The notes under the pieces were generated by a model. It was not told where the DNA came from. It saw nothing but the letters and a program-made list of their open reading frames with translations, and ran no database searches. The position numbers and the translations under genes are program-made. 64,000 nucleotides of DNA from a virus: positions 133,359 to 197,358 of the IMG/VR virus record IMGVR_UViG_3300025237_000001, one strand, 5' to 3'. The stretch's first letter is position 1, and each line of letters begins with the position of its first letter. Below are positions 60,530 to 60,639 of the stretch, in pieces.

Positions 60530-60639
60530 AATAGTTAGGGACGTGGGCTTGAAGGTAGCCATCGTTTAAAGAGTAACAGAGTCAAGTTTACAATTTTATC
60601 AGACTCAATGTTTTTGGTGTTATAACACACCCAATTATT
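60530..60639 (+). ncRNA. 23S rRNA H43-H44 (uL11-binding/GTPase-associated centre) mimic
   Basis: GGACGTGGGCTTGAAGGTAGCCATCGTTTAAAGAGT[hairpin]GTGTTATAACACAC aligns to 23S 1055-1104 with compensatory changes. Confidence 0.8.

Follow-up and report, generated by a model that had tools for sequence, protein, structure and literature searches.

[quoted passage not shown] Two of its adenines, A1070 and A1095, are invariant in rRNA. In E. coli, the domain is tied together by contacts of C1072 with C1092 and with G1099, by G1071 on the G1091-C1100 pair, and by the junction adenines on the last pairs of H42 (PMC2952862; PMC1919483). Binding of uL11 needs this tertiary fold (PMC6239185).

We identified a gene for a free-standing copy of this domain in a 197-kb record (~56% complete) from a marine T4-like phage. 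The window, by which we mean the whole 64-kb stretch of DNA that was analyzed, is the terminal part of that record, and a tRNA array occupies 58.6-63.7 kb of it. Whereas the 23S GAC is part of rRNA, the phage element is a self-closed gene of 111 nt (window 60529-60639, plus strand) lying between two tRNA-Ser(UGA) genes of this array. With E. coli rrlH (L122) as the numbering reference, the features are:

60441-60529, plus strand: upstream tRNA-Ser(UGA) (ARAGORN; Rfam tRNA, 52.1 bits)
60530-60539, plus strand: closing stem, 5' strand, equivalent to the top of H42 (G1054 = 60538, G1055 = 60539); pairs with 60630-60639
60541-60565, plus strand: H43 copy (1057-1081), from alignment, motif and covariance model
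60566-60574, plus strand: junction 1082-1090 (UUUAAAGAGU), from alignment to E. coli 23S
60575-60616, plus strand: 42-nt insert, exactly between U1090 and G1091, from folding and model alignment
60617-60629, plus strand: H44 copy (1091-1103), from alignment and covariance model
60630-60639, plus strand: closing stem, 3' strand (C1104 = 60630), from folding and covariance model
60645-60732, plus strand: downstream tRNA-Ser(UGA) (ARAGORN; Rfam tRNA, 33.7 bits)

No open reading frame of at least 60 aa covers 60530-60644, and the frames of 40-48 aa in this interval run into the tRNA genes. The mimic is present as one copy in the whole record, and no LSU rRNA was found in the 197 kb.

Alignment to rrlH confirmed the register that a sequence-only reading had proposed, inside a 10-pair closing stem with one A.C mismatch, at 1053-1106. 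Landmarks are G1054 at 60538, G1062 at 60546, U1090 at 60574, G1091 at 60617 and C1104 at 60630. The H43 copy has a stem of A-U, C-G and G-C pairs and a GGCU/AGCC hairpin with the loop UGAAGGU, which holds G1067 (60551), G1070 (60554), G1071 (60555) and U1072 (60556). The junction contains the U1082-A1086 pair, A1084/A1085, G1087, A1088 (pairing with U1060 at 60544) and G1089-U1090. It is followed, again as that reading had placed it, by the 42-nt insert, whose helical part (60575-60612) forms the hairpin AACA-GAGUC / GACUC-AA-UGUU around an 18-nt A/U-rich loop (60584-60601) and leads into a UUUG linker shared with the family described below (60613-60616). In the H44 copy, the G1091-C1100 and U1092-A1099 pairs enclose the loop GUUAUA (U1095 = 60621), after which come A1101 (60627), C1102 (the partner of G1087) and A1103.

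The helices, the junction and the loop sizes are the same as in the 23S GAC, and its tertiary contacts are kept or covaried: 1072:(1092-1099), G1071, U1060-A1088, 1082-1086, and A1084/A1085 on 1054-1105 and 1055-1104. The compensatory changes that had been read from the sequence hold, namely U1058-A1080 to C-G, A1054-U1105 to G-C, and C1072 with C1092-G1099 to U with U-A, as does the retention of U1060/A1088, G1071 and U1082/A1086. At the sequence level, the window thus has a U:U-A triple, G1071, U1060/A1088, U1082/A1086 and A1084/A1085. The two RNAs differ in that the 23S GAC has neither the hairpin between U1090 and G1091 nor the UUUG linker, and has U1101 where the element has A; the H42 kink-turn of 23S (the L10 site) is absent from the phage element. 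Finally, 23S carries A1067, A1070 and A1095, and the window member has replaced all three: the factor- and thiopeptide-contacting adenines have become G1067 and U1095, changes also noted in the sequence-only reading, and A1070 is likewise G.

Identity alone would not carry the assignment. The window element matches E. coli 23S at 37/52 positions and genuine Firmicute 23S at 39/52, and the best ungapped score, over the 37-nt 5' part, is 27/37 against 23/37 at the next-best place in the window. A single match to the motif GGCTT-N6-AGCCATC-N-TTTAAAGA is present in the window, and none in 100 shuffles. A leave-one-out covariance model of 25 relatives, with the window sequence excluded, matches the element over its full length (60529-60639) at 86 bits (E 4.5e-25), its sole significant match in the 64 kb, and also matches true E. 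coli 23S at 1045-1113 (55 bits). Rfam 15 recovered only the flanking tRNAs in this region of the window, blastn of the element against E. coli genomes gave no match, no exact 28-mer of the element was found in IMG/VR, and its folding energy is not significant by itself (z = -1.46). ViennaRNA favors a shifted 4-pair H44 for the window sequence and the U:U-A subtype; this register would leave the joint change of 1072 and 1092 unexplained. A search of IMG/VR with the H43-loop variant GGCTTGAAGGTAGCC returned no family relative. Acinetobacter phage ME3 (L193, 161971-162304) has the same odd H43 loop UGAAGGU (G1067, G1070) with A1095 kept, so this loop variant recurs in a cultured phage.

Although first read as an isolated oddity, the element has many relatives and belongs to a large family in phages. 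A degenerate H43 pattern identifies at least 118 IMG/VR contigs, and none of these viral loci is genuine 23S, their similarity to E. coli 23S spanning only 30-100 nt. This agrees with the earlier description of a free-standing RNA gene in a tRNA array, as does the lack of LSU rRNA in the record. Among 185,579 species genomes of bacteria and archaea, just 57 contain the 3' signature, mostly on MAG contigs. Members share a layout of closing stem, H43, AAAGAGU, helix-closed insert, UUU plus a purine, GCGUAAUAGC-ACAC and closing stem, with U1090 in 78/79, the UUU positions in 74-77/79 and A1101 in 77/79; the window has all of these. The comparison sequence for Firmicute 23S is AAAGAGUGCGUAAUAGCUCAC, a genuine copy located at the terminus of a Paenibacillus phage record. 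Because Firmicute 23S has GAGU, the GAGU of the family represents native 1087-1090, and the insert falls exactly between U1090 and G1091. The 23S in Paenibacillus phage Pd_22F (L191, MZ092003.1, 83377-84608) is genuine and reaches well past the GAC; this stretch probably comes from the host or from a chimeric assembly and does not represent a mimic.

Cultured phages also carry the element. Pseudomonas phage pf16 (29413-29608; 105 bits), Xanthomonas phage XacN1, Aeromonas phage 4_4572, Cronobacter phage GAP32 (289511-289761) and Acinetobacter phage ME3 have one copy each, located either among tRNA genes or in a gap without annotation, and Pectobacterium phage CBB is a further carrier. Together, the cultured carriers infect Pseudomonas, Cronobacter, Pectobacterium, Serratia, Erwinia, Yersinia, Xanthomonas, Acinetobacter and Aeromonas. 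In phages of gamma-proteobacteria, the element departs from the hosts' 23S in having GAGU in place of GAAA, other 1058-1080 pairs and A1101; these differences argue for one phage lineage and not for repeated captures. The homolog search suggested in the sequence-only reading thus yielded relatives, with covariation, in both IMG/VR and cultured phages. The alignment to LSU rRNA that it also suggested succeeded in part: the Rfam LSU model stays below detection on the window at E up to 10, but places the 5' half of the element, in both GAP32 and pf16, at positions 1094-1147, and apart from such weak LSU matches the relatives are unmatched in Rfam. One contig (L125) has two GAC mimics ~1 kb apart, at 1117-1234 and 2172-2363 (82.6 and 84.4 bits). 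PA5oct ncRNA001 and ncRNA002, abundant RNAs of a GAP32 relative, were considered as possible family members and are not GAC mimics. No description of the family was found in Rfam 15, the full-text literature or a 2023 survey of viral structured RNAs, which agrees with the earlier statement that none was known in phages, as absence of evidence only. Within this large and apparently undescribed group of phage RNAs, the window RNA stands out as small and atypical.

Selection on the GAC fold is evident from covariation across this family. In the first sample, most H43 positions were fixed by the search pattern; a second sample of 57 bacterial-genome contigs was therefore picked by the 3' half alone. 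Among 79 members, whose relatedness means that substitution counts are not independent events, 1058-1080 is paired in 79/79 with four Watson-Crick types, and 1054-1105 and 1055-1104 are paired in 79/79 as G-C and A-U. The closing (outer) stem is 87-100% paired across the family with all four pair types, and the insert-closing pair is GC in 38 members, AU in 20 and UA in 15. The 1072:(1092-1099) triple reads C:C-G in 50, U:U-A in 21 and U:U-G in seven, with one exception. In a 26-sequence alignment, 95.7% of cells were paired compared with 74.1% in shuffles, and 38-56% in slid registers; the covariation score of 0.561 (0.160 in shuffles) was reached by 0/500 shuffles, and columns 1072 and 1099 behave as a pair (0/500 shuffles). 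The second sample has a conserved H43 half and adds compensatory changes at 1057-1081, 1062-1076, 1063-1075 and 1064-1074. There, the 1082-1086 pair is UA in 14, CG in 13 and AU in two, and U1060-A1088 and A1084/A1085 are invariant although free to vary. On this independent set, analyzed as 38 matches, 93.1% of cells were paired (68.2% in shuffles), with compensatory changes in 19/23 pairs, a level reached by 0/500 shuffles. All helices thereby receive support from covariation, as do three tertiary contacts: the triple, 1082-1086, and the helix pairs receiving the junction adenines. The same contacts have been reported in the E. coli domain (PMC2952862; PMC1919483). The claim that selection maintains both the secondary and the tertiary fold, the triple included, is borne out.

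The same data bear on whether the element could be a captured, decaying fragment of host 23S, or a chance likeness without function. An identity of 37/52 to E. coli, a folding energy that does not reach significance and the alteration of three rRNA-invariant or factor-contacting bases would all suit such an origin. It is contradicted by the covariation, as the compensatory changes preserve every helix and the base triple, and the insert after U1090, the UUUR linker and A1101 are common to phages of unrelated hosts and unlike those hosts' 23S. With the motif absent from all 100 shuffles and a model E-value of 4.5e-25 as well, we regard decay or chance as highly improbable.

The setting of the element suggests how the RNA might be made. 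A tRNA gene lies within 30 nt in 40/78 distinct viral members and within 500 nt in 57/78, every one of the latter on the same strand, and in the window and several relatives no base separates the element from the upstream tRNA. This proximity and abutment argue for co-transcription with the tRNAs and release by tRNA-processing enzymes. The gene would then encode a small stable RNA, transcribed together with the phage tRNAs and excised by the enzymes that process its neighbors. Since the 3' end of the upstream tRNA abuts the element, tRNA 3' processing would set its 5' end, while an RNase P cut at the 5' end of the downstream tRNA would free its 3' end with ~5 A residues. A promoter and terminator scan of the tRNA array gave no excess over chance, a tRNA-like CCA tail is present in only 2/78 members, and the sequencing runs listed as containing the stretch, one of them probably its source, are DNA only, with none on record as RNA.

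Other genes share these arrays. The window array includes an HNH-endonuclease-like ORF (59171-59626), with DNA similar to T4-type HNH endonuclease genes, and a gene that ARAGORN calls as tRNA-like, its anticodon loop being abnormal (59949-60029). GOLLD, above its Rfam gathering score, lies ~120 nt upstream of the GAC mimic in L006 (1582-2047) and shares a tRNA array with the mimic in L030 (685-1176). Synteny was examined through the neighboring 206-aa HisRS-like gene: at 15 loci with relatives of this gene, no element was found within 4 kb, and in five whole records with such relatives it is absent throughout. The element is optional and patchy in its occurrence.

We rank first, at a probability of roughly 0.4, the reading that the window RNA is an off-ribosome imitation of the GAC acting through host uL11. 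The RNA would fold as a compact GAC (the top of H42, H43 and H44), with the extra hairpin projecting between U1090 and G1091, and would act away from the ribosome in imitation of that center. Fold-specific binding to host uL11 might then make it a uL11 sink or a decoy RNA-protein particle, the likely effects being weaker L11-dependent steps, such as RelA activation and RF1-type termination, or capture of a factor that docks at the L11 stalk base. As the window member lacks a sarcin-ricin module and has its factor-contacting adenines replaced, fold-specific uL11 binding is most probably the interaction that it has retained. No uL11, RelA/SpoT or MazG gene was found in the ~56% complete record, nor a uL11 gene in five complete genomes of element-carrying phages, so any bound uL11 would be the host's. 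Several points count against a role through uL11. The surface for uL11 could be perturbed by the insert beside 1087-1090 and by A in place of U1101. It is also not evident that uL11 on ribosomes can be captured, and its removal would slow translation on which the phage itself depends. The element is also dispensable enough to be missing from the five records with neighbor-gene relatives.

The variable insert invites other explanations. Across the family, it ranges from 21 to >430 nt, with a few insert-less forms, and falls into subtypes. Among the inserts of L192, L193, L190, L017, L020 and L078, one subtype carries the motifs CAGGGGAAGGACAAGUACAGUU, GGGCGAAGCC and GACCCUUAGAG, and a second has GGCACCCCGNAANNGGUAAGGC directly before the 3' half; the motifs of both subtypes have no match in Rfam or E. 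coli 23S. The GAC might accordingly be a mere stable, protein-coated handle, with the insert doing the work and the window member a stripped-down form. Such conserved subtype motifs would be expected of a working insert, as would the persistence of the entire 251-nt element across GAP32-like jumbo phages, where it is 81-90% identical and at the same genome position. The GAC core is nevertheless the only part common to all members, its tertiary contacts are the most constrained, and it is intact in short-insert members such as the window; the existence of a few forms with no insert also counts against a mere handle. We think it improbable that the insert alone is the functional part.

Some inserts contain a second piece of rRNA, a sarcin-ricin hairpin with an exact 13-nt core (UAGUACGAGAGGA), present in two lineages with different flanking stems. 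Of its 12 matches in 3.4 Mb, 10 are bracketed by the two GAC halves, H43 and H44. Members with an exact core match include L004 (6878-7305) and L041 (3688-4069, with a GGGA loop), as well as L009, L013, L022, L023, L101 and L115. In sequence, these members thus replicate the two pieces of rRNA that make up the site at which translation factors bind. In addition, A1095 is kept in 71/79 members (90%) and A1067 in 60/79 (76%), bases that the fold would not require. Together with the sarcin-ricin copies, this speaks for the face that meets translation factors and not for uL11 alone, and the theme of the family may be the factor-docking site of the ribosome, not just its uL11 site. Most relatives having kept A1067 and A1095, their loss is an oddity of the window member and not a family trait: both are lost in only 2/79, the window being one, and the combination of G1067, G1070 and U1095 is found only in the window among the 79.

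It is possible, if less probable than action through uL11, that the RNA is a sponge for a protein that docks at the factor site (EF-G, an EF-Tu complex, IF2, RF3, RelA or a defense GTPase), with uL11 at most a cofactor. Isolated oligonucleotides of the sarcin-ricin loop and the thiostrepton region reportedly bind EF-G in vitro (Munishkin and Wool, 1997). The presence of the sarcin-ricin core in two lineages is in keeping with a sponge, and so is the retention of A1095, which contacts cofactors and is dispensable for the fold (PMC6239185). In the window member itself, however, the insert is the second shortest, a sarcin-ricin module is lacking and A1067, A1070 and A1095 have all been replaced; most other members also lack the module, and titrating elongation factors would harm the phage's own translation.

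The RNA might instead protect ribosomes, serving as a decoy or pseudo-substrate that absorbs a GAC-attacking toxin or antibiotic from the host or a competitor. H43/H44 is known to be attacked by such agents: thiopeptides bind it, and the bacterial toxin Tre23 ADP-ribosylates H44 at 1095-1098 (PMC8661411). A protective role would parallel that of phage tRNAs that replace tRNAs destroyed by defense nucleases, and the location in a tRNA array accords with this, as does an occurrence that is optional and patchy, like that of counter-defense genes. Changed target bases could even make the RNA a non-modifiable trap. We know of no anti-phage system that targets the GAC, however, and an RNA would be a poor shield from a catalytic toxin unless it bound far more tightly. 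The window's changes at 1067 and 1095 would weaken thiopeptide recognition too. We hold protection to be rather doubtful, and a little less plausible than a sponge for docking factors.

Returning to the first-ranked reading, action through host uL11, a more specific version is that the phage uses the RNA as a uL11 sink to raise amber readthrough of TAG-gated phage genes and to block (p)ppGpp. Ribosomes poor in uL11 terminate poorly with RF1 at UAG and do not support RelA activation. The window has two amber-suppressor tRNA(CUA) genes ~10 kb upstream of the element. Near the family as a whole, tRNA(CUA) was found at 5/78 loci, no clear enrichment in a comparison without a proper baseline. We see this version, and with it the broader idea that phages deploy a portable replica of the factor-docking site, extended by the sarcin-ricin loop in some relatives, as a long shot. 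The two amber-anticodon tRNA(CUA) genes, at 49046-49121 and 50537-50610 of the window, and a tmRNA (71 bits) at 46161-46535 are situated 10-14 kb upstream of the mimic.

To our knowledge, no free-standing, trans-acting copy of an rRNA domain has been described. If action through uL11 is borne out, large phages would encode a stand-alone copy of a functional center of the ribosome, a new kind of player in phage control of host translation. The 111-nt RNA would also be a natural minimal GAC for structural work, and would allow direct tests in which uL11, RelA, release factors or stalk-directed toxins are offered a decoy. The presence of the family in cultured phages makes these experiments feasible.

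Among known regulatory RNAs, the leaders of ribosomal-protein operons (L10, L1, L20, S15) are likewise non-ribosomal RNAs that copy an rRNA protein site and compete for the protein, such competition being what we propose for the phage RNA. The leaders act in cis, as feedback upstream of the gene for their own protein, whereas the phage element is flanked by tRNAs in a record with no uL11 gene. Unlike them, it copies a whole tertiary domain, and no Rfam leader family matches it. GOLLD and ROOL are also phage-borne RNAs found near tRNA arrays; they are RNA-only cages of 400-800 nt without rRNA likeness, and have no sequence or structural relation to the GAC mimic. The 6S RNA, a mimic of the open promoter that binds RNA polymerase, has another target and another fold, and its binding is demonstrated where that of the GAC mimic is postulated. 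The proposed logic is nonetheless the same: an abundant small RNA ties up a protein by imitating the site at which that protein normally binds.
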